DNA of 34,302 nucleotides from a virus (Duplodnaviria > Caudoviricetes). The stretch spans positions 1-34,302 of the IMG/VR virus record IMGVR_UViG_3300012347_000071; one strand, given 5' to 3'. A program made the position numbers and the translations under genes. Positions within the stretch are counted from its first letter, which is position 1; every line of letters begins with the position of its first letter. Below the pieces are notes generated by a model. It was not told the DNA's origin. It saw nothing but the letters and a program-made list of their open reading frames with translations, and searched no databases. Of this stretch, positions 2,291-31,250 are shown piece after piece.

Positions 2291-3949
2291 TTAGACTAAA
2301 CCGTTCAGGTAAACTGACTGCTGTGTAACAACACCTTTATTTGCAGGCACAGTGGTTGCCAAGTTGTTAAAAGAAATTAGCGGTCCATTTTGCTGCGATG
2401 TAGGCAAATCATATGCACCTGTAACAGCAACATATCCACTCGACCCATTTGAGAAAGTTGTTGTTGAAACGCCATAAATACCTGAGCGAAGCATGTAAGT
2501 TATATGGGTTTGCGGGTTTTGATCTACTGTAGCATTAGTGAAAATTTGCCAAGTTCCATCTTTTACAACAACAGCCGCCCTACATCCTGTATTTCCTTGA
2601 CTCGATGCCGTATAAATTGATGTGGTAATTGCGCTTTTGGCAGAAAAATTCAAATAAGAAGCATACGTAAATGTCTGACTACTGTTATCAAATGCAGAGT
2701 TTTGTGCTAAGAACAAACCTTCTCCAAGATAAACAATACGCATAGACGATGATCCTGGGTCATTTGAAAAGTTCACTTGACTTGGACAGCTCATGCCAGA
2801 TATGAAGGCTAAAGGTGTTACTGGAACGCCAGAAGAAGTATATGTGCCATAAGCACAAGTACTACTGTATGCAACAACCTGCACAAGACCATCTCCAGTA
2901 GTGATTGCAATATTACTGCTAGACATAGCATTGCTAATAAACAAACCGTTTGTGTATGTTCGTGCTGTTATCAACGTATTTGTTGAGCTAATAAAATACA
3001 AACCCCAATAGCCAGAGGATGCAGTATCAGAAGACAGCACAGTAACACTGTTGTCAGCATTTGCTACAGCAAGCAGTCGAGCTTGCTGCGATTGCCATAG
3101 GCTTGATGTCGTGCTGATTCGCAATGGAGAGCCAACTGCTGTACCTGTTGATGTAGCTCTAACAATATATGTATCAAAAGAATCTTGTGCAACAGAAAAT
3201 ACATCACCGTTTGGAGCTTGCCATACGCCAAAAATATACCAAGTTGCTGTAGCAATAAAAGAAATAGTAGTGCCTTGTTGAGTTCCAGACGTATTAAAAA
3301 TACTCAATGAAAGACCAGCAGACGAGCTTTTATTATAGAAAACTGCAATATTTCCGTTTGACATGACAGTGGCCTGCCAGTTGTAGTTGCCAGCAGAATA
3401 TGTGCTGCTTAACAACGCGGTTTGACCTAACACAGCAACGCCGTCATTAGTAAATGTCTGCATGTACAGTGTAGACGATACCGCATAAATTACTGCAAAA
3501 CCTCCAGCAGATAGTGCGTAAACACCATACGTAGGAATAGTTACACCTGCCGTGCTAGGAAGAATAAGTCTTGAAATAGCGCTTCCAGCGGGTGTAGTAA
3601 TGGTGAAATTCAAAGCAATGGTGGTGCTTCCAGCAGATTGAGAACCACCATAAATTGAAACAGTATTTCCATTACTCAGCAAGACGGCGGCAGGTTGCCA
3701 CCCTGAATATTTAAAATTACCAGCAGTACTGCCTGAATGCTGCATAGCCACTCCAGATGCAATAGTCTTGCCGCCTGAAGTATTATTGTTCTCGTATTGA
3801 TTGTAAGGAGCCAAAGAAGAATATGAATGCGCTCCTCCAACCTCAGTCAAAACAACAGTATCTCCTGTATTGATAGTTCCGTATTCACATTTTACTTTAA
3901 CAAGGTTTGGTGTGATGCCGCCATTTGGTGTGCTTACTGTACGTGACAT
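2291..3949 (-). CDS. Putative receptor-binding tail protein, beta-propeller-like
   Basis: 552 aa Ser/Thr/Gly-rich beta protein with recurring LSNGN/LSAGG/MSNGN/APNGD turns; downstream of tail fibre; AT-richer than neighbours. Confidence 0.65.
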   Translation of the reverse strand: MSRTVSTPNGGITPNLVKVKCEYGTINTGDTVVLTEVGGAHSYSSLAPYNQYENNNTSGGKTIASGVAMQHSGSTAGNFKYSGWQPAAVLLSNGNTVSIYGGSQSAGSTTIALNFTITTPAGSAISRLILPSTAGVTIPTYGVYALSAGGFAVIYAVSSTLYMQTFTNDGVAVLGQTALLSSTYSAGNYNWQATVMSNGNIAVFYNKSSSAGLSLSIFNTSGTQQGTTISFIATATWYIFGVWQAPNGDVFSVAQDSFDTYIVRATSTGTAVGSPLRISTTSSLWQSQQARLLAVANADNSVTVLSSDTASSGYWGLYFISSTNTLITARTYTNGLFISNAMSSSNIAITTGDGLVQVVAYSSTCAYGTYTSSGVPVTPLAFISGMSCPSQVNFSNDPGSSSMRIVYLGEGLFLAQNSAFDNSSQTFTYASYLNFSAKSAITTSIYTASSQGNTGCRAAVVVKDGTWQIFTNATVDQNPQTHITYMLRSGIYGVSTTTFSNGSSGYVAVTGAYDLPTSQQNGPLISFNNLATTVPANKGVVTQQSVYLNGLV

Positions 3950-3955
3950 ATTATA

Positions 3956-4267
3956 TTACTCCTCATATCCAAAAATAGTTACACTCACTGCTGCTGTATT
4001 TGCATACACAACAATATTCTTTGCTGCTTGTGCAACAATGCCGCCACGCTCTAAAACACCGTTTTGAGGAATAGTTGCATCGTATTCAAGATACTCAGAA
4101 ATACTTGGAGTTCCAGAAGCCGCTACAGCAAGCCTTACTGAAATTGGTGTTACGCTTGTATTACAGATACTCACAGTGAGAGTACTTACTTTACCGCTAG
4201 GAACGGTATATACCGTAGTGTTTGTTGTTGCGGCAGGATTTGACTGCCCCAAAATTCCAGTAGCCAT
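3956..4267 (-). CDS. Small virion/tail-associated protein
   Basis: 103 aa beta-rich (TTVYTVPSG..VSICN..IFGYEE), in tail module, GGAG SD. Confidence 0.65.
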   Translation of the reverse strand: MATGILGQSNPAATTNTTVYTVPSGKVSTLTVSICNTSVTPISVRLAVAASGTPSISEYLEYDATIPQNGVLERGGIVAQAAKNIVVYANTAAVSVTIFGYEE

Positions 4268-4278
4268 GTTAGGACTCC

Positions 4279-5427
4279 TTAGTTAAAACTTGAAAAGAAA
4301 AATGCTTTGCCAGTTGTTACACCAGCAGTACCAAATGAGATGTTTCCAGCGCCATCTGTAACCAATGCTTGACGCGCAACGCCATCAGTAGTTGGCAAAG
4401 CAAATGCCGTAACAAAAGCTGTCAGGTTTGAATCAAAAGCTTGAACTGTTGAGCCAATATCTCCACTTGAAAGATAACCAGTTGCTGGAATGTAAGCGGT
4501 AGCCCATGTGCCACTTGATGTTCTAACTCGCATCTCATTGGCTGTGCTGTTGAAATATAGCGCACCAGTAATTAACGCATTTCCATCATTGTCAACAGAC
4601 GGGTCACTTGCTTTTGCACCTAAGTATTGCTCTGCAAATTCAGCAACAATGGCAGCGGAAGCAGCAGTTGTTGTTGCATCAGTATCAGCAGAAGATGCAG
4701 AAGCAGCAGCAGCAGATTCGCTTGCAGCGGCAGCAGCCTCACTCGCAGCAGCAGCAGAAGCACTTGCAGTAGCAGAAGCAGCATCGACAAGCAAATACCA
4801 TTTTGCAGAGTCTGTGTTTGTGCTAATTGGTGTAGTGCCAGTAGATGTATGAGAAGTCTTGCACTGATAAATATTGCTGTTGCTACTATCTTTTACTAAG
4901 TCGCGCTCAAGATATGCTGTAGCAGAAGCCCAATTACCACGGTTATTACCAATTGAATCTGAAGCAACTGGATTACCATCAGAGTTAAATGACAATAGTT
5001 TTCCAGCACGATCTGCCTTGCGAGGCAAAGTCATGTTAATGCTTGTCGGGTCAGTCTGTGGAGCCTTCAACGCACGGTCAACAGCTTCAGCGTTTTGCTG
5101 TGCAAAGATGGTCTGTTGGTCCATCTCATCGTTTACAGTGTTAGCAAAGAAATCGCCACCAGTAACGAAGTCTGTTGTACGCTGGATGGTACGGTTGCCA
5201 ACAATAGCAATCTGAGTTGCACCAGTTGGTGATGCAGTCAAAGTGATTGAACCTGTGCCGTTGCTATTTATTGTTACCGTGTAATCGGTAGTCAATGTAA
5301 GCAGCGTGTCATCCTTGTAAACAGCGATGTCGGTGTTTGCAAGAATCTCAAAGGTGAATGAATACGGGCCAGTACCACTGGCTGTATAAACCACCCTACG
5401 AGTTACGTTTGAAATTGGTACGCCCAT
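4279..5427 (-). CDS. Tail fibre protein (T7 gp17-like N-terminal adaptor)
   Basis: N-terminal YSFTFEI..TDYTV..IQRTTDF..NDEMD pattern, Ala-rich linker, GALYFNS motif. Confidence 0.85.
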   Translation of the reverse strand: MGVPISNVTRRVVYTASGTGPYSFTFEILANTDIAVYKDDTLLTLTTDYTVTINSNGTGSITLTASPTGATQIAIVGNRTIQRTTDFVTGGDFFANTVNDEMDQQTIFAQQNAEAVDRALKAPQTDPTSINMTLPRKADRAGKLLSFNSDGNPVASDSIGNNRGNWASATAYLERDLVKDSSNSNIYQCKTSHTSTGTTPISTNTDSAKWYLLVDAASATASASAAAASEAAAAASESAAAASASSADTDATTTAASAAIVAEFAEQYLGAKASDPSVDNDGNALITGALYFNSTANEMRVRTSSGTWATAYIPATGYLSSGDIGSTVQAFDSNLTAFVTAFALPTTDGVARQALVTDGAGNISFGTAGVTTGKAFFFSSFN

Positions 5428-21338: not shown

Positions 21339-21377
21339 GCGCTGATTTTATGCCTTATTCAGAGGAAAGCAAGTGCA

Positions 21378-21398
21378 ATGCTTTCACAGTGATAGCTT
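21378..21398. promoter_or_regulatory. 21-bp palindromic operator, copy 1
   Basis: ATGCTTTCACAGTGATAGCTT, just upstream of minus-strand TTGCTT-N16-TAAAAT. Confidence 0.7.
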
Positions 21399-22950
21399 AA
21401 CCAAAGATGTCGAAGTCTGTGCTTGCTGTTGTCTGAACAGGCGCTCTGCCGCCAAGCTGAACTGATCGGGTCATACGGTTGTATTCGCCTCCACCTAGCA
21501 TCAGGTAGCCAAAGCTATCACCAATGTGTGAGTGTTCGTTCTTGTTTGGCGCATCTCGGAACCGTTCATGGCCTGCGCCGACAGCAACTCGCTTGAAGTG
21601 ATAGCCACCAGACAGGGCTTTACGCAAAAGTTTGCACTCTGTGTTGACAATCAGGCCAGGCTTGCCGTTGATTAGGCGCTGCATTGGAGCAGCCGACGCT
21701 TCACGACGCACCTTGAAGTCGTTTGACGCAGTTGGTTGCGCTTTCAGACCCAAGGTTCGCAGAAAGTCAAAGGCTGTCACCTCATAAATGGCATCACGGG
21801 CCATACCAGCAGGGTCACCCCAGATCATTACTTGGTGATTTGGGTATCTGGCATTGAGTTCACCAAGCAGTTGGTGTCCAAAACGCTCAAGGCCCATGTC
21901 AAAAGTGACGATTTCTTGGTGGACAACCCATCTTCCATTTGGCAAACGCTGTCCAATGGTGGCAGCAGGGGTCAAACCGAAGTCAAGACCTACCTGAATT
22001 GGCACAGAAGGGTCAACTTCAGTTGGGCCAGACATGCTTCCATCTTCAAACTCAGGCCAAACAGGGCGACCTTCCTGCACATAGACGTATTCGCCACCTG
22101 CATAACAGCGAATCCAATCCAATGACTTGCCAAGCAGCATCTGTTGGTAGTAGCCAGAAGGTAGGTTGTTGACGTTCTCTGCCTTTGGGTTGAGCTTCCA
22201 CCACTTGCCAGCGCTGAAGATGTGGTCATTGGCTTCAGGCATATCTGGCAGGTCTTCAGGGTCAACTGGCACAACGCCACCTGGCTGACTCCAGAATTTC
22301 CAAGCGTACTTGCCTGACATCTTCTCTTTCTCAGCCATCTTGTGCCACCAATGGTCGTCATCCATCGGGTTGGTGTCCATCAAAATGCCGTGCCAAGTAG
22401 CGCCACCATCACGTTTTGTTGGGTAGCGACCAACACGGTGAGTCAAACCGTCAATCACAGCCTTTGGCAACTCACGCGCTTCGTTCACCCAAGCCCCTGT
22501 CAGCTCCAAAGACAGCAACTTGCGAACGTCTTTAGGTTGGTCAAGGGCCAAGAAGATGACTTCCAAGTCAATGCCAGCAGCTTCGCCACGGGCAGGCAGT
22601 CGGATGTGGTGGGTAATCGGTGGAGTCCACAGCATCGGGCCAAACGTGGACTCAGGGAACAGGTCGAGCCAAGTTTTGATGGTCGTGGTCTTCAGCATGG
22701 GGTAGCTGTTACGCACGATGGCCCATCGGCTGTATCGGATGTTGTCGATTGGAGAAGGCTTCTGTTGGACAGCCTTAATAAAAATCTTGCCACAGCAACC
22801 GTATGACTTGCCAGACCCTACTGGACCCATGATGCCCTGCACAAAAGCATTGCTCTGGATGAAGTCGTAGATGACAGGGGATTTGCTGAAGTCTAGGTTC
22901 AGACCTTCAACTGGCACTTCTTTGGAACTGCGCTCTTTGGTCTTGCTCAT
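21397..22950 (-). CDS. terL: Terminase large subunit
   Basis: Walker A GPVGSGKS, Walker B AWVNEARE, DTNP, nuclease GLDFG..DPAG..HIGD. Confidence 0.95.
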   Translation of the reverse strand: MSKTKERSSKEVPVEGLNLDFSKSPVIYDFIQSNAFVQGIMGPVGSGKSYGCCGKIFIKAVQQKPSPIDNIRYSRWAIVRNSYPMLKTTTIKTWLDLFPESTFGPMLWTPPITHHIRLPARGEAAGIDLEVIFLALDQPKDVRKLLSLELTGAWVNEARELPKAVIDGLTHRVGRYPTKRDGGATWHGILMDTNPMDDDHWWHKMAEKEKMSGKYAWKFWSQPGGVVPVDPEDLPDMPEANDHIFSAGKWWKLNPKAENVNNLPSGYYQQMLLGKSLDWIRCYAGGEYVYVQEGRPVWPEFEDGSMSGPTEVDPSVPIQVGLDFGLTPAATIGQRLPNGRWVVHQEIVTFDMGLERFGHQLLGELNARYPNHQVMIWGDPAGMARDAIYEVTAFDFLRTLGLKAQPTASNDFKVRREASAAPMQRLINGKPGLIVNTECKLLRKALSGGYHFKRVAVGAGHERFRDAPNKNEHSHIGDSFGYLMLGGGEYNRMTRSVQLGGRAPVQTTASTDFDIFG

Positions 22951-23258
22951 GCTTTTCCTCTTGCTCGGATTGTGTTTTCTGCTTCTTCAAAGCACATGAC
23001 GGCATCTTCATCGCCAACTACCAATGCTTCATCTGCTAATCTGCCGCACACCTTTGCACACGCATCACGCTCTTGCTCAACAGCGTACTTGGTGCGTCTT
23101 GCAACCCATTCAGCATCAACGCCATCAGGAAGGGCTTTAGCTGCTACCAGTTTGGAAAATGCAATCAATGATGCAATCTCTGGCCCTTCATCATCAATCC
23201 AAATGCACTGGCACAACTCTGCTTGATTAGCCATCTCAATGATTTCATCTTGTGTCAT
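22947..23258 (-). CDS. Hypothetical protein between terS and terL
   Basis: ERDACAKVC..IRARG pattern; coupled on both sides. Confidence 0.7.
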   Translation of the reverse strand: MTQDEIIEMANQAELCQCIWIDDEGPEIASLIAFSKLVAAKALPDGVDAEWVARRTKYAVEQERDACAKVCGRLADEALVVGDEDAVMCFEEAENTIRARGKA

Positions 23259-23774: not shown

Positions 23775-24089
23775 TCAAATTTCTAAGCAATCCAACATTG
23801 CATGGACATCTGAACTTGAACTTCTCACAAGCTGCGTAAGAGATTCAACATGACCAACCATTGGTGAGCCACCATTGCGGCACTCTGGAATAGCATTTCC
23901 AGTTGCTGGCATTGGTCGCATTGCTGGACTAAGACGTTGATTTAAATGCTGCAAGCCTTCACGAAGGTAATGCAATTCTTTTTCAAGCTGGTCAAGAGCA
24001 ATACCAATAGGAGGCACTTGTCTATTTACTTTTGGTTCTTCGGCATAACCAGCAGTTACGCCAACACGGTCAAAGTTTGGTGGATACAT
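23775..24089 (-). CDS. Hypothetical coiled-coil protein
   Basis: 104-aa ORF ending LDCLEI. Confidence 0.7.
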   Translation of the reverse strand: MYPPNFDRVGVTAGYAEEPKVNRQVPPIGIALDQLEKELHYLREGLQHLNQRLSPAMRPMPATGNAIPECRNGGSPMVGHVESLTQLVRSSSSDVHAMLDCLEI

Positions 24090-24593: not shown

Positions 24594-24645
24594 TAGAACA
24601 AATAAATCTCTTGTTTGTCAGTAAGAACTGTGGCATAGTTGAGAC

Positions 24646-24831
24646 ATGGGGCCATCACTCAGCCCTTCAGACGGTAGGCAGCTAACCAACTGAGATAAAC
24701 GTACTGAATCCATTGGTACTTCTAGTAGGCAACGAACGGGGACATACAGGTGGAGCTAACAACTAGACACTGTTAGTCAAGTTAGATAAACAAGGTGCTG
24801 CATCCACTTGTGGATACTCTCACTTTTTTTT
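24646..24831 (+). ncRNA. Candidate plus-strand small RNA (~185 nt)
   Basis: Promoter TTGTTT-N17-CATAGT with TG extension (24611-24639); ends in ATCCAC-TT-GTGGAT hairpin plus T8. Confidence 0.45.
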
Positions 24832-24899: not shown

Positions 24900-25109
24900 C
24901 AGCAGCAGAAATTCCCTTTCCACAAAAAATCCTAGGAAAAATTCAGAGGTATACCCCTACGTGACGACGACGGGTGGGGGGGCAAGGGGTGCCTTCGCTA
25001 GTACGCGCCAGCACGACACGCCAGCGCGATACCGTGCGCGTCAACGTGCGCGTATAGGGTGAACGACAGACACAGTAGACACGACGGGTGTTATGTAAAG
25101 TAGGAATGA
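24900..25109. other. Putative replication origin and/or genome terminus/packaging region
   Basis: Non-coding, A-tracts, G-tract GGGTGGGGGGGCAAGGGG, short direct repeats, immediately 3' of the Rep-like gene. Confidence 0.45.
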
Positions 25110-25772
25110 TTACGATAGCATTACTTGCAGCTGCAGCTTAACCTCATCGATGGATGCACCTGGTCCTGCACGATCCACAGCGATTGCCAGCATGTCAGCG
25201 CCTACCGATCGGGCCAGCTGCTGCATCACAGCCTCATTGTCAGAATCTATCACTATAGTCCCATCAATAGCTATTTGCTCTAGATTACCTGCATCTACTG
25301 TTGCAATTGTTTTCTTTTTACGGGCCATTACATCATCTCCAGTATTGAATGAGTTTAGATTATCTCTGTTCTGCTGTCTGACCAGGTAGGGTGCTGCCTC
25401 GCCACTGACAGCTGCTGCCTCATCTGCTGTGATCTGGTCTGCAAATATCACCTGCCTGGTATGCGCCCGCTGGCCTGGGTAACCCTTGCAGACAATTCTG
25501 ATGTAACCCTTGCGTTCTAGGCTTTTAAGGTGTCTGCTTATGTTGCTGGCTTCGCGCTGCAGGGTCTGCGCTATCTTCTCTGCGCCTACCCAGGCCACGC
25601 CGCCCCTGTTGCAATAGCTGCACAGGACCAGCAGAACCCTTAATTGCATAGGTGTCAGCCTGTAGTCTGCTGCTGCTCTGAATGGTAGGACAATAAATTT
25701 GCGCTGATCTGGCAGTGGCTCTGCTAGTCTGATCCTGGGTTTTTTTGGCAGCTGTATCGGTTCTGTCTTCAT
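25110..25772 (-). CDS. HTH-domain replication initiator-like protein
   Basis: LTPMQLRVLLVLCSY..AWVGAEKIAQTL..ISRHLKSLERKGYI winged-HTH (HTH_36-like); start at ATG 25772 or GTG 25787. Confidence 0.7.
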   Translation of the reverse strand: MKTEPIQLPKKPRIRLAEPLPDQRKFIVLPFRAAADYRLTPMQLRVLLVLCSYCNRGGVAWVGAEKIAQTLQREASNISRHLKSLERKGYIRIVCKGYPGQRAHTRQVIFADQITADEAAAVSGEAAPYLVRQQNRDNLNSFNTGDDVMARKKKTIATVDAGNLEQIAIDGTIVIDSDNEAVMQQLARSVGADMLAIAVDRAGPGASIDEVKLQLQVMLS

Positions 25773-25779
25773 TCCTGCA

Positions 25780-25788
25780 TTATCCACA
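25780..25788 (+). promoter_or_regulatory. Perfect DnaA box
   Basis: TTATCCACA, overlapping the putative -10 of the Rep-like gene. Confidence 0.5.
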
Positions 25789-25794
25789 GGACGT

Positions 25795-25820
25795 AAAAAA
25801 ACCCTGCACTGTGGCAGGGT
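25795..25820 (-). terminator. Intrinsic terminator of early operon
   Basis: ACCCTGC-CACAGT-GCAGGGT followed by T6. Confidence 0.85.
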
Positions 25821-25825
25821 CTGGC

Positions 25826-26029
25826 TTAAGCTACCTGGCGCGCTAGTCTGCGCCTGTCTCTGATGGTTCTAACAGCTCTACTGATCGTGGTCTGATTGCA
25901 TCCGATCAGCTCTGCTGCTGCTGTCTGCGTTAACCCGTCCACCAGGACCAGTGCAGCGCCCTTGCTGGCCTGGCTGTCTGATTTGATCCTGGTTAACTGT
26001 AACAGTGTCTTGTATTCGTGCAGTGTCAT
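25826..26029 (-). CDS. TrfB/KorA-like HTH transcription regulator (67 aa)
   Basis: AAGGG SD; ALVLVDGLTQTAAAELIGCNQTTISRAV resembles the KorA HTH (GVLVDG..Q..VSQAV). Confidence 0.7.
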   Translation of the reverse strand: MTLHEYKTLLQLTRIKSDSQASKGAALVLVDGLTQTAAAELIGCNQTTISRAVRTIRDRRRLARQVA

Positions 26030-26039
26030 TGTGTTCCCT

Positions 26040-26285
26040 TTAAATTGTGCAACAGCCACAGCAGGGCGCATCGATGCACCTGCCTTGTTTATTTCGAATG
26101 AATGCCTGGGTTCCGATCTGGATCAGATAAGACCCGTCGCTGTCTGGTCTGATATCAAAATCACCTGGTTCTGCCAGCCAGGTTTTTCTGGTGGCTGTAT
26201 CGAACTGCACCTCATCACCTGGATTTATCTCTGCGCCACTGACAGCGCAGCGCCCACGATATCTTGCTGTAATGGTTTTGATCAT
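26040..26285 (-). CDS. Small protein with C-terminal RCIDAPCCGCC motif
   Basis: 81 aa, coupled to upstream stop. Confidence 0.75.
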   Translation of the reverse strand: MIKTITARYRGRCAVSGAEINPGDEVQFDTATRKTWLAEPGDFDIRPDSDGSYLIQIGTQAFIRNKQGRCIDAPCCGCCTI

Positions 26286-26932
26286 GCTGCCACCTGCTTA
26301 AGCATAATTACCTTATTCATTTTGCTCCCGTGGGCAGGGTATGCAATAACTTTCACTTTTTTGTCATAGCATGCACGACAGCCACTGCAGCGCCCGTCGT
26401 TCTCATAAGCCCTGCACAGCGTCATTCCACGTTTAACCTGGTCTGCTGTGGGTATGATCACGCTACCATGCAGGCCCTTAATGTATTCGCCCTGTACGCT
26501 GTCGCTGCTAAACCGAACGCATACATTCGGCAGCGCCTGCATGTCTGCCAGGACCTGGCGAAACTTAGGAAACTTATGCATGCGCGTGGGTAACCAGTGC
26601 TTAACCCATGGCGTGCGCTGCATCACCTCCAGAATTTTCTCCGCCAGTGCCAGGGTATACATGTCTCCAGAATCGAACCATCGCCAGTGGCTGTCTTTTT
26701 TCATCTCTGCCACCATATCGTCAGACCAGCTGATGCGCTGCCAGTCCTGTTTATTGTGGGCGCGTGGTGCTTTCACGTTCGGATAATTGTAGTTACCCGT
26801 AGTGGCATAGCAGCCCTTGCAGGCATCCACCAGAACACCAGGCGCAGAGATGCTGCCAGGACATGTCTCCAGGGCCTGTAATGACCAGCTGCGAATATTG
26901 TCTAGTTTGGATGTAATGCTGATTTTGATCAT
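26282..26932 (-). CDS. GP88-family protein (Cys-rich, radical-SAM-like)
   Basis: CPGS..CKGCYA, RWFDSGD, HWLPTR, C..CSGCRACY, YPAH; AAGGGG SD before ATG 26932. Confidence 0.8.
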   Translation of the reverse strand: MIKISITSKLDNIRSWSLQALETCPGSISAPGVLVDACKGCYATTGNYNYPNVKAPRAHNKQDWQRISWSDDMVAEMKKDSHWRWFDSGDMYTLALAEKILEVMQRTPWVKHWLPTRMHKFPKFRQVLADMQALPNVCVRFSSDSVQGEYIKGLHGSVIIPTADQVKRGMTLCRAYENDGRCSGCRACYDKKVKVIAYPAHGSKMNKVIMLKQVAA

Positions 26933-27144
26933 GTCTGGCCCCTTATTTGATAAACGACAGGGTTTCTGTCTGCTGCACAATTTGATATCCCATGCGTTCT
27001 ATGATCTGCAGGGCCTGGTGAGTCAGCGTTTTTGTGCCAGCTATACGGGCGAAATTATGGGAAACATCGCAGGCAGGGTATGCTGTCAGAACACCATAAT
27101 TGTTTTTGATTTGGATGGTTATTTGCATGTCTGGCCCCTTATTT
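26930..27144 (-). repeat. 19-bp direct repeat at two gene junctions (26930-26948, 27126-27144)
   Basis: AAATAAGGGGCCAGACATG = stop + SD + start, identical twice. Confidence 0.9.
26943..27128 (-). CDS. Small early hypothetical protein (61 aa)
   Basis: YG..YPAC..FARIAGTKTLT; AAGGGG SD. Confidence 0.8.
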   Translation of the reverse strand: MQITIQIKNNYGVLTAYPACDVSHNFARIAGTKTLTHQALQIIERMGYQIVQQTETLSFIK

Positions 27145-27231
27145 CACCAGGACATCAAAATAAGCCAGCAGCAGCATTACTGCCACCACGAACCAGACCA
27201 GGGTAAACGTCACATTAAATATTTTCTGCAT
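27139..27231 (-). CDS. 30-aa single-TM peptide, first gene of early operon
   Basis: GAGGT SD; MQKIFNVTFTLVWFVVAVMLLLAYFDVLVK. Confidence 0.7.
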   Translation of the reverse strand: MQKIFNVTFTLVWFVVAVMLLLAYFDVLVK

Positions 27232-27294
27232 TTTCAGACCTCATAAGTAGATGGTTTTTTGAAAATCAGCAGCTGATCTGCTACTGATGCACGA

Positions 27295-27338
27295 ATAGTA
27301 ATGTACTTTTCTGCACTATGTAATAGGTGTTTACCCTA
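27295..27338 (-). promoter_or_regulatory. Early promoter candidate with upstream dyad
   Basis: TAGGGTAAACACCTA dyad abutting TTACAT-N17-TACTAT. Confidence 0.5.
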
Positions 27339-27500
27339 GGTTATCAAAATAATTGCATGCAGCAGCTGAAAATCAGATAACAGGTGCAGAGATGCCAGGC
27401 ATCCACCCGATAAACTTTTTACCTAGTAAATAAACCATCTCTCAAATAGGGTTATCGGGTTTCGCTTCTAGTGCGCGTGATGCGCTACTGTCTTCAGTGT

Positions 27501-27559: not shown

Positions 27560-27674
27560 AGATGAGGGAATCGGCTTGCACTACACGTCGGGCGCTACGA
27601 AATTTCTGGCTGAATCCTATCGCCAGCGGAATGCAGAATTTTTCCTGGCATTCCAAAGTAATTTCCCATGTATG

Positions 27675-31159: not shown

Positions 31160-31168
31160 GCCTGCATT

Positions 31169-31189
31169 ATGCTATCACTTTGAAAGCAT
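31169..31189. promoter_or_regulatory. 21-bp palindromic operator, copy 3
   Basis: ATGCTATCACTTTGAAAGCAT in the spacer/-10 of the RHH promoter. Confidence 0.75.
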
Positions 31190-31250
31190 TTGCATCTGTG
31201 TTGAAAAAATACAACGAATAAAAATAAATATCTCCCTGCTGTGGAGCCTA

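Follow-up and report, generated by a model that had tools for sequence, protein, structure and literature searches.

A replaceable early cassette with a Type I avoidance signature and a candidate anti-restriction gene in a freshwater podovirus

The viral contig IMGVR_UViG_3300012347_000071 (34,302 nucleotides, analysed over its whole length and called the window below) carries a compositional island between its RusA block and ssb-terS-terL, just upstream of the latter, which includes a gene of the GP88 family. The rest of the genome (the backbone) is purged of restriction-type palindromes, while the island keeps them at a neutral level; it instead lacks certain asymmetric words and is depleted in word pairs of the Type I restriction kind, with a dip at spacers of 5 to 8 nucleotides (N5-N8). 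Both signals have sharp limits at a conserved element, R, and at an early promoter-like element, the cassette is swapped for other alleles in related phages, and the pattern recurs in about 100 loci. The island is quite probably first-entering DNA under selection by Type I enzymes. As a whole, the explanation we favour, if only by a little, is a replaceable early cassette at the first-ejected end of the genome, with GP88 disarming restriction that depends on S-adenosylmethionine (SAM).

Restriction palindromes are neutral in the island

A sequence-only reading of the window had described this segment as loaded with restriction sites that the other DNA avoids, and most of its counts hold. CAGCTG occurs eight times in the island (25128, 25215, 25409, 25749, 26727, 26886, 27270 and 27363) and CTGCAG four times, with neither found outside; ATCGAT (2), TGATCA (3), CTTAAG (2) and GCATGC (3) are also confined to it, and the 25 CCWGG and 15 GATC (31 and 46 outside) were counted correctly. 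Outside pentamers are present as reported, but in greater number (29 AGCTG and 53 TGCAG, rather than about 20 and nearly 50). The palindromes run from 25128 to 27363. "Loaded", however, does not describe them: the six island genes contain 41 six-bp palindromes against 36.6±5.2 in synonymous shuffles, whereas the other genes of the window contain 93 against 362. The observed/expected ratio (O/E, order-2 Markov) is 1.00 in the island and 0.19 outside, and the island is thus merely unpurged.

Compared with the synonymous shuffles, the island genes have 6 CAGCTG (4.0 in shuffles), 4 CTGCAG (4.5) and 14 GATC (10.2); only CCWGG (24 vs 11.3) and GCWGC (29 vs 21.9) lie above the shuffle. CCGG and CCSGG are absent both inside and outside the island. 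Across the islands of the close GP88 type (17 kb), CCGG, TGGCCA, GGGCCC and GAATTC are all at zero, and avoidance persists for some palindromes (CTGCAG 12 vs 52, TGGCCA 0 vs 8), and CCWGG ranges over 0-4.6 per kb in all but one of the six tabulated relatives of the close type. Many sites are private: 24/46 in eight GP88 genes, 38/52 in nine genes for the winged-helix protein repHTH, and 12/15 in the repHTH gene of the window. The neutral level and the private sites led us to reject positive selection for palindromes. CTAG shows no depletion (6 inside; 2.6 vs 1.3 per kb), which speaks against Vsr-type T:G repair as a source of CCWGG, and this idea was dropped as well. Elsewhere in the window, the tail-fibre block (2291-5427) has a palindrome O/E of 0.38, compared with 0.17-0.21 in the rest of the backbone, and no Type I dip (1.02).

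Asymmetric words are lost and codon use is shifted

The loss of asymmetric words, which the sequence-only reading had missed, is a stronger signal than the palindromes and affects both strands and all frames. Compared with backbone expectation, the island contains 4 CAAC (37.5 expected), 3 CCAA (34.7), 3 GAAG (29.4) and 8 CAAG (40.7), or 0.1-0.2 of their rate in the backbone. The backbone is itself rich in these four words, which accounts for some of the contrast; CAAC, CCAA and GAAG are also depleted against the island's own codon shuffle. CAA/TTG and AAG/CTT words are depleted on both strands, and TTG is used for none of the 53 island leucine codons. CTG makes up 70% of leucine codons and CAG 83% of glutamine codons; ATA (26% vs 5%), AGA+AGG (47% vs 14%), CTA and TTA have also risen. 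Six of 11 Gln-Leu or Leu-Gln pairs are written CAG.CTG or CTG.CAG, and the loss of TTG, CTT, CTC and CAA codons leaves fewer escape routes from these two palindromes. By word counts, the pattern may reflect avoidance of IIG-type sites.

Each GP88 subtype has its own words within one backbone. Across backbones such subtype-specific vocabulary fails as a rule: the four mean shifts correlate at 0.48-0.89, and 70/102 loci are assigned to their own subtype. The relative L234 (1900-4300) has the opposite vocabulary in the same slot, with 21 CAG/CTG against 94 expected from its backbone and an abundance of CGC, AAC and CCG. In the distant GP88 slots of L216, L237, L238 and L215, ACG/CGT falls to 28 against 165 backbone-expected, with GCA and CAA words up; the Type I dip alone does not explain this loss.

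A Type I-type dip at N5-N8

As a statistic for Type I-type sites, we took the O/E of word pairs in which an A-containing word precedes a T-containing one, with spacers of 0-21. The list of 15 words was picked by hand and after the depleted words had been seen, and the result was therefore re-checked without it. With the list, pooled O/E in the flanks of GP88-family genes is 0.83, 0.73, 0.77 and 0.86 at N5-N8, compared with 0.95-0.98 in distant DNA. Without it, the single-base A...T correlation drops at distances 7-10 (0.87, 0.90, 0.92, 0.96), and 34 of the 40 most depleted word pairs are of the A-word..T-word type. The dip is deeper near the gene than far from it in 98/102 loci (97/102 with computed word classes). 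In the window it reaches 0.85 in the island and 0.99 in the rest, and 91 overlapping control windows give 1.00±0.05 with a minimum of 0.90; this is a statistical signature of local Type I avoidance that names no host motifs. Six of seven cultured GP88-family phages are also lower in the leading region as delimited by eye (0.64-0.91 vs 0.95-1.00).

Churn from escape of Type I sites was considered as a cause of the palindrome release and is weakened, as loci with the stronger release tend to have the weaker dip (rho +0.41, release vs dip value). Avoidance of protospacer-adjacent motifs of CRISPR systems, also considered, does not predict a spacer dip.

Both signals stop at conserved boundaries

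The palindrome release and the dip both end at R (14-18 pooled GP88-type relatives; coordinates in Table 1). In 18 pooled relatives, a single 500-bp bin places the stop of both at R and, on the other side, at the promoter-like element or shortly upstream of it. Across R the dip goes from 0.85 to 1.01 and palindromes from 15.6 to 7.6 per kb; across the promoter-like element the dip goes from 0.98 to 0.79. GP88 has the opposite orientation, away from terS, in L142 and L126, yet there too the signals begin at R, and they extend as far as the early genes do. R may be the packaging start or genome end, and the sharp limits fit a physical end at R that would be packaged last and ejected first. The promoter role of the element at the other limit is suggested by its conservation, since the consensus scan did not call a promoter there. 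Element L, on the far side of it, has its strict pattern in 13/22 GP88-family slots and in two GP88-less slots (L167 and L271). Between R and ssb, the window also contains a conserved non-coding block (24600-24830) with a 24-base core found exactly in 22 IMG/VR contigs, which could be an origin, a late promoter region or a small RNA.

Table 1. Features in and around the island of the window
Position	Strand	Feature	Support or remarks
24935..24985		Element R, right boundary: C-run, then GGGG, then AATTTTT tract (read on minus strand)	Kept in 5 aligned sequences
25100..27420		Compositional island, replaceable cassette	Palindromes neutral; asymmetric words and Type I-type pairs depleted
25110..25787	-	repHTH, winged-helix, similar to replication initiators, core gene of the group	Pfam HTH_36 E 4.5e-10; PHROG 270/391
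25799..25822	-	Terminator-like hairpin between small HTH gene and repHTH	Consensus scan only
25826..26029	-	Small helix-turn-helix (HTH) regulator, about 67 aa	Weak Pfam HTH matches below cut-off; 80% identical in L213
26040..26285	-	81-aa protein, Cys-rich motif at end	PHROG 5664/2656 (unknown function)
26282..26932	-	GP88, 216 aa, predicted radical-SAM-like fold, two Cys clusters	Candidate anti-restriction enzyme
26943..27128	-	61-aa unknown protein	No Pfam/PHROG match; 58% identical in GP88-less L213
27139..27231	-	30-aa hydrophobic open reading frame (ORF), first in operon	ORF list; similar ORF in L213
27295..27340	-	Early promoter-like element, short inverted repeat before -35 region	In 15/18 GP88-type relatives
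27586..27610		Element L, left boundary, resembles inverted copy of R	Missing in GP88-less L213

A swappable slot that recurs across loci

The closest comparison is L213, whose backbone is mostly 95-97% identical to the window but whose slot allele is shorter and lacks both GP88 and the signature. In the lake populations X2 and X3, the backbone has a depth of about 50 and 22, respectively, and the island under 4. (These are contig depths only; X2, X3 and X4 are mostly without the island, and X1 has mixed alleles.) Relatives may carry in this slot a GP88 of the close type, one of the distant type (32-34%) or one of a third subtype; others have DUF7227, a protein with an ArdC domain, or nothing but small ORFs of unknown function. 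Palindrome O/E in the slot is 0.73-0.95 with a GP88-family gene and 0.39 in seven pooled GP88-less slots, whose backbones have 0.33.

In the window, the resident gene repHTH has the composition of the island, and in a tree of 22 rows all four sister-group contrasts have more palindromes beside GP88 (15 in the window vs 5 in L213; 9 and 11 vs 4 and 4; 3-16 vs 3 and 2; 15 vs 4-6), with L215 and L216 as exceptions that are low despite GP88.

To see how general the pattern is, 261 loci (four subtypes and the window) were reduced to 167 clusters under 90% gene identity, of which 102 were kept and 65 dropped for length. Palindrome O/E near the GP88/DUF7227 gene exceeds that of distant DNA in 96/102 loci. 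Within coding sequences measured against synonymous shuffles, near exceeds distant in 40/40, 24/24, 4/5 and 25/33 loci. The release reaches roughly 1.5 kb to each side of the gene. The terL-anchored loci L001-L080 have mostly unpurged backbones, in which an island could not show.

Several other slots are worth recording. An ArdC N-terminal domain and a metallopeptidase-like domain lie in the slot of L230 (7105-7890), with CCGG at 6.9 per kb in the slot and 1.5 in the backbone. In the dipping GP88-less relatives L233 (6694-7020) and L236 (5708-6040), it is filled by acidic proteins of about 110 aa without a Pfam match, which are candidate DNA mimics. An ASCH-domain gene directly follows DUF7227 in L262 (7339-7686), and the 58-kb contig IMGVR_UViG_3300020036_001383 (L358, L392) has two GP88 gene copies, which may be an assembly duplication or a repeat.

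GP88 is a predicted radical-SAM-fold protein

The GP88 protein of the window belongs to Pfam GP88 (PF17338) at 114.1 bits (gathering cut-off 24.4). C24, C38, C41, C173, C182, C185 and C188 are conserved in at least 90% of 106 sequences. An AlphaFold model built from these 106 sequences has a pLDDT (predicted local distance difference test) of 97, following a poor model from 28 close sequences. The top 14 VIA-align matches among 48,161 chains are all radical SAM enzymes (Z 4.8-6.3), the best being pyruvate formate-lyase (PFL) activase (Z 6.3, root-mean-square deviation 4.4, 149 aligned). At these modest scores, GP88 is a predicted iron-sulfur enzyme of radical-SAM fold. A sequence search of the PDB gave no match to GP88, the ESM Atlas returned DUF5131 at 0.77, which is under the trust level, and 72,556 plasmids contained no match to GP88.

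GP88/DUF7227 is a large family, with 5,298 matches. Homologues of GP88 and DUF7227 (PF23872) are situated toward the genome ends of pelagiphages, roseophages, P-SSP7 and cluster-A mycobacteriophages, those listed of the last group having it some 2-3 kb inside the right end; in P-SSP7 and CRP-4 the GP88-family gene comes first in the genome, and in Lo5R7ANS and HTVC309P it is either the first or the second, namely gene 2. Our literature search, in which subscription papers were largely not covered, found no paper on PF17338, DUF7227, PF23872 or Gp88-like, and none joining terminal redundancy, palindromes, Type I and the early region. We give GP88 an even chance of being an anti-restriction factor; that it acts by consuming SAM is our own, more tentative suggestion.

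Genome context

The window is a circular contig (55-nt overlap of its ends) with T7-type portal and tail-tube genes, RecE/Erf, RusA, SSB, TerS and TerL (Pfam/PHROG). Its TerL is 74% identical to that of Methylophilales phage MEP301, and the phage is a freshwater podovirus related to it; DNA related to the window occurs in freshwater sequencing runs. A host search gave 11 contigs of metagenome-assembled genomes of mixed taxa, pointing to no host, and the methylome supplement of PMC4752239, in which five taxon names were looked up, has no Polynucleobacter or Limnohabitans rows. The island comprises six minus-strand ORFs (Table 1), none of which has a Pfam/PHROG match to Ocr, SAM lyase or Ard; the gene for the 81-aa protein lies downstream of GP88 in 14/46 long loci among those listed. 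Beside terS, two ORFs (22947-23258 and 23775-24089) are skipped in contigs of the close lake populations X2 and X3, and are therefore accessory. Finally, a 24-nt inverted pair (21377-21400 and 31167-31190), 92% complementary and intergenic at both sites, is possibly a shared promoter or operator motif.

A first-entry model and its alternatives

We propose the following order of events. Packaging would begin at R, pass terS-terL and continue around the circle, in which case the island would be packaged last and ejected first, R end first. Transcription of the cassette would wait until the whole stretch from R to the promoter has entered the cell, so that only this stretch would meet Type I enzymes and be purged of their sites, and the backbone would be shielded from them once a cassette product acts. 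GP88 would disarm SAM-dependent restriction, most likely through SAM consumption. Type I enzymes recognise two half-sites across a gap and require SAM (PMC3874165; papers cited by PMC number are cited for excerpts only). Type II palindrome cutters have no need of SAM (PMC6286503), and the backbone would therefore have to keep purging palindromes. The SAM hydrolase of T3 works against enzymes of Types I and III and not against orthodox Type II ones (PMC6286503), a split that matches the one here, with the backbone purged of palindromes only and the leading DNA of Type I pairs. The palindromes of the island would be remnants of weakened Type II selection with no signal function. An ArdC-domain protein in the same slot of L230 supports this model, and the earlier suggestion of first-ejected DNA under different selection is upheld indirectly by the nearby conserved G/C element upstream of terS, the scarcity of Type I pairs and the sharp limits.

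Several observations weigh against this model. The reversed T..A control dips too, though less (0.89 and 0.88 at N4-N5), and Lo5R7ANS has no dip (0.97 vs 0.98). GP88-less slots dip in 5/8 cases (0.70-0.82), L213 included, so the dip marks the place and not the gene, and another cassette gene could be the inhibitor. Likewise, the slot/far density ratio of palindromes is 2.5 (n=21) with GP88 and 1.9 (n=6) without (p=0.17); the release therefore goes with the position, and GP88 adds no more than a tendency to a stronger one. Contigs start near R-like sequence in a handful of about 110 cases, judged by eye, which is not above chance. The loci are related, and their counts overstate independence. 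The spacing C24-x13-C38-x2-C41 differs from the canonical radical SAM motif CxxxCxxC, the fold Z-scores are all under 8, and Foldseek gave no GP88 match at E<=0.001. Lastly, the first-entering repeat of T5 must lack Type II sites, which are tolerated elsewhere in that genome (PMC10644984), the reverse of the window.

The tolerance of palindromes may have more than one cause, and the candidates can add up. Terminal redundancy and, slightly less so, turnover between phage lineages are each tentative, and a conflict with the narrowed vocabulary is unlikely. Terminal redundancy is also the core of a distinct proposal, in which a long direct repeat spans L to R and a copy cut by a Type II enzyme could be repaired from the intact one, relaxing selection on palindromes. 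It is compatible with first entry and is the leading candidate for the tolerance, although as an explanation in itself we rate it as quite unlikely. The sharp limits at two inverted conserved elements would suit it, as would the length of 2.4-2.6 kb (some 7% of a circle of 34.2 kb), the leading regions of Lo5R7ANS, HTVC309P, P-SSP7 and CRP-4, in which no release is seen by eye, and MEP301, whose genome is circularly permuted or terminally repeated, the ends being left open in that paper (PMC8024684). However, element L is unmatched in 9/22 GP88-family slots, the long repeat of T5 is purged rather than relaxed (PMC10644984), and the summed contig depth of X1 is lower over the island, not double, in a sample that mixes alleles. 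A broader version would make GP88/DUF7227 a widespread and so far unrecognised family of iron-sulfur, SAM-destroying anti-restriction enzymes with the role of gene 0.3 in thousands of aquatic phages and cluster-A mycobacteriophages, here placed in a long terminal repeat where redundancy lifts Type II selection and first entry imposes Type I selection, an inverse of the T5 end that could be read from the sequence by itself; this we consider rather improbable. A cassette that moves between hosts faster than its palindromes are purged, with its vocabulary a trait of the cassette lineage and entry order minor, is likewise unlikely. It would account for the swapped allele of L213, the near-identical X2 and X3 populations, which do not cover the cassette, the words peculiar to each GP88 subtype in the same backbone, the less purged tail-fibre block and the correlation of near and far O/E (rho 0.49). 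Yet the tail-fibre block has no Type I dip, such a migrant has hardly any home genome (O/E of at least 0.8 in distant DNA of 3/102 loci, in cassettes of 58/102), the resident core gene repHTH is richer in palindromes beside GP88 in the four contrasts above, and both signals stop at R. Plain recent acquisition, which the sequence-only reading had considered simpler, similarly explains part of the pattern, the variable tail-fibre block being less purged too, but not the Type I signal or the scarcity of unpurged donors.

We regard two further explanations as very improbable. The sequence-only reading had also suggested a decoy, sink or methyltransferase landing pad, in which palindromes are positively selected to soak up enzymes or attract methylation. 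CCWGG and GCWGC do exceed the synonymous shuffles, but the neutral total, the predominance of private sites and the continued avoidance of several palindromes (CCGG, TGGCCA, GGGCCC and GAATTC) speak against a decoy, and CCWGG is sparse in most close-type relatives. Codon adaptation for fast early translation, with CAG/CTG palindromes as a by-product, would fit the dominance of CTG and CAG and has a precedent in plasmid leading regions (PMC13478746). It is countered by the depletion on both strands and in all frames and by L234, which avoids CAG/CTG in the same slot, and codon use predicts no N5-N8 dip. Moreover, ATA, AGA, AGG, CTA and TTA, usually rare codons, rise as well.

Relation to known systems

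The first-entry model has its nearest parallel in the early region of T7- and T3-like phages (Ocr as gene 0.3, the T3 SAM hydrolase, and Murciavirus; PMC12455610), which have, as proposed for the window, a variable leading region that locally avoids Type I sites and a candidate inhibitor gene in the first operon. T7 carries Ocr (PMC3874165) at the gene-1/2 position where several T7-like phages, such as P-SSP7, CRP-4, Lo5R7ANS and HTVC309P, have the GP88 family. The window differs in lacking a phage RNA polymerase, in being transcribed toward its presumed end, in its candidate, GP88, which has no Pfam match to Ocr or the SAM-lyase family, and in its released palindromes; the excerpts on Murciavirus and others describe Type I avoidance in early-injected DNA and do not treat palindromes (PMC12455610). 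The first-step-transfer region of T5 and BF23 is a pre-early segment that, like the island, has sharp limits and a restriction-site content that sets it apart (PMC10644984). Type II sites are absent from that first segment, whereas the island has a palindrome O/E of 1.0 against 0.19 outside; two-step injection and a long repeat are features of T5, while the window is known from contigs only.

MEP301 resembles the window in TerL, size and gene classes, but has no GP88 match among the records listed, no comparable island and another gene order near terS. Leading regions of conjugative plasmids enter first, as proposed for the island, and have a distinct composition and many anti-defence genes (PMC13478746); the excerpts of that study differ in reporting codon adaptation and no systematic target depletion, and the 72,556 plasmids searched gave no GP88 match.

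Significance

According to the excerpts of PMC6286503, genome-wide surveys find no avoidance of Type I sites in phages, and local avoidance has so far been described for single motifs in few phages (PMC12455610, PMC10644984). Here, an A...T dip at N5-N8, which is independent of the host, singles out a region of this kind in several cultured phages and about 100 uncultured loci. With no more than a sequence to work from, this dip could locate the DNA that enters first and narrow down the genes that may counter restriction, and it flags GP88/DUF7227 as a testable candidate family of anti-defence enzymes. The pattern is real and general among these phages: a probable leading anti-restriction region that can be measured by its Type I signature, that tolerates palindromes in a manner opposite to T5, and that has GP88 as its candidate enzyme.

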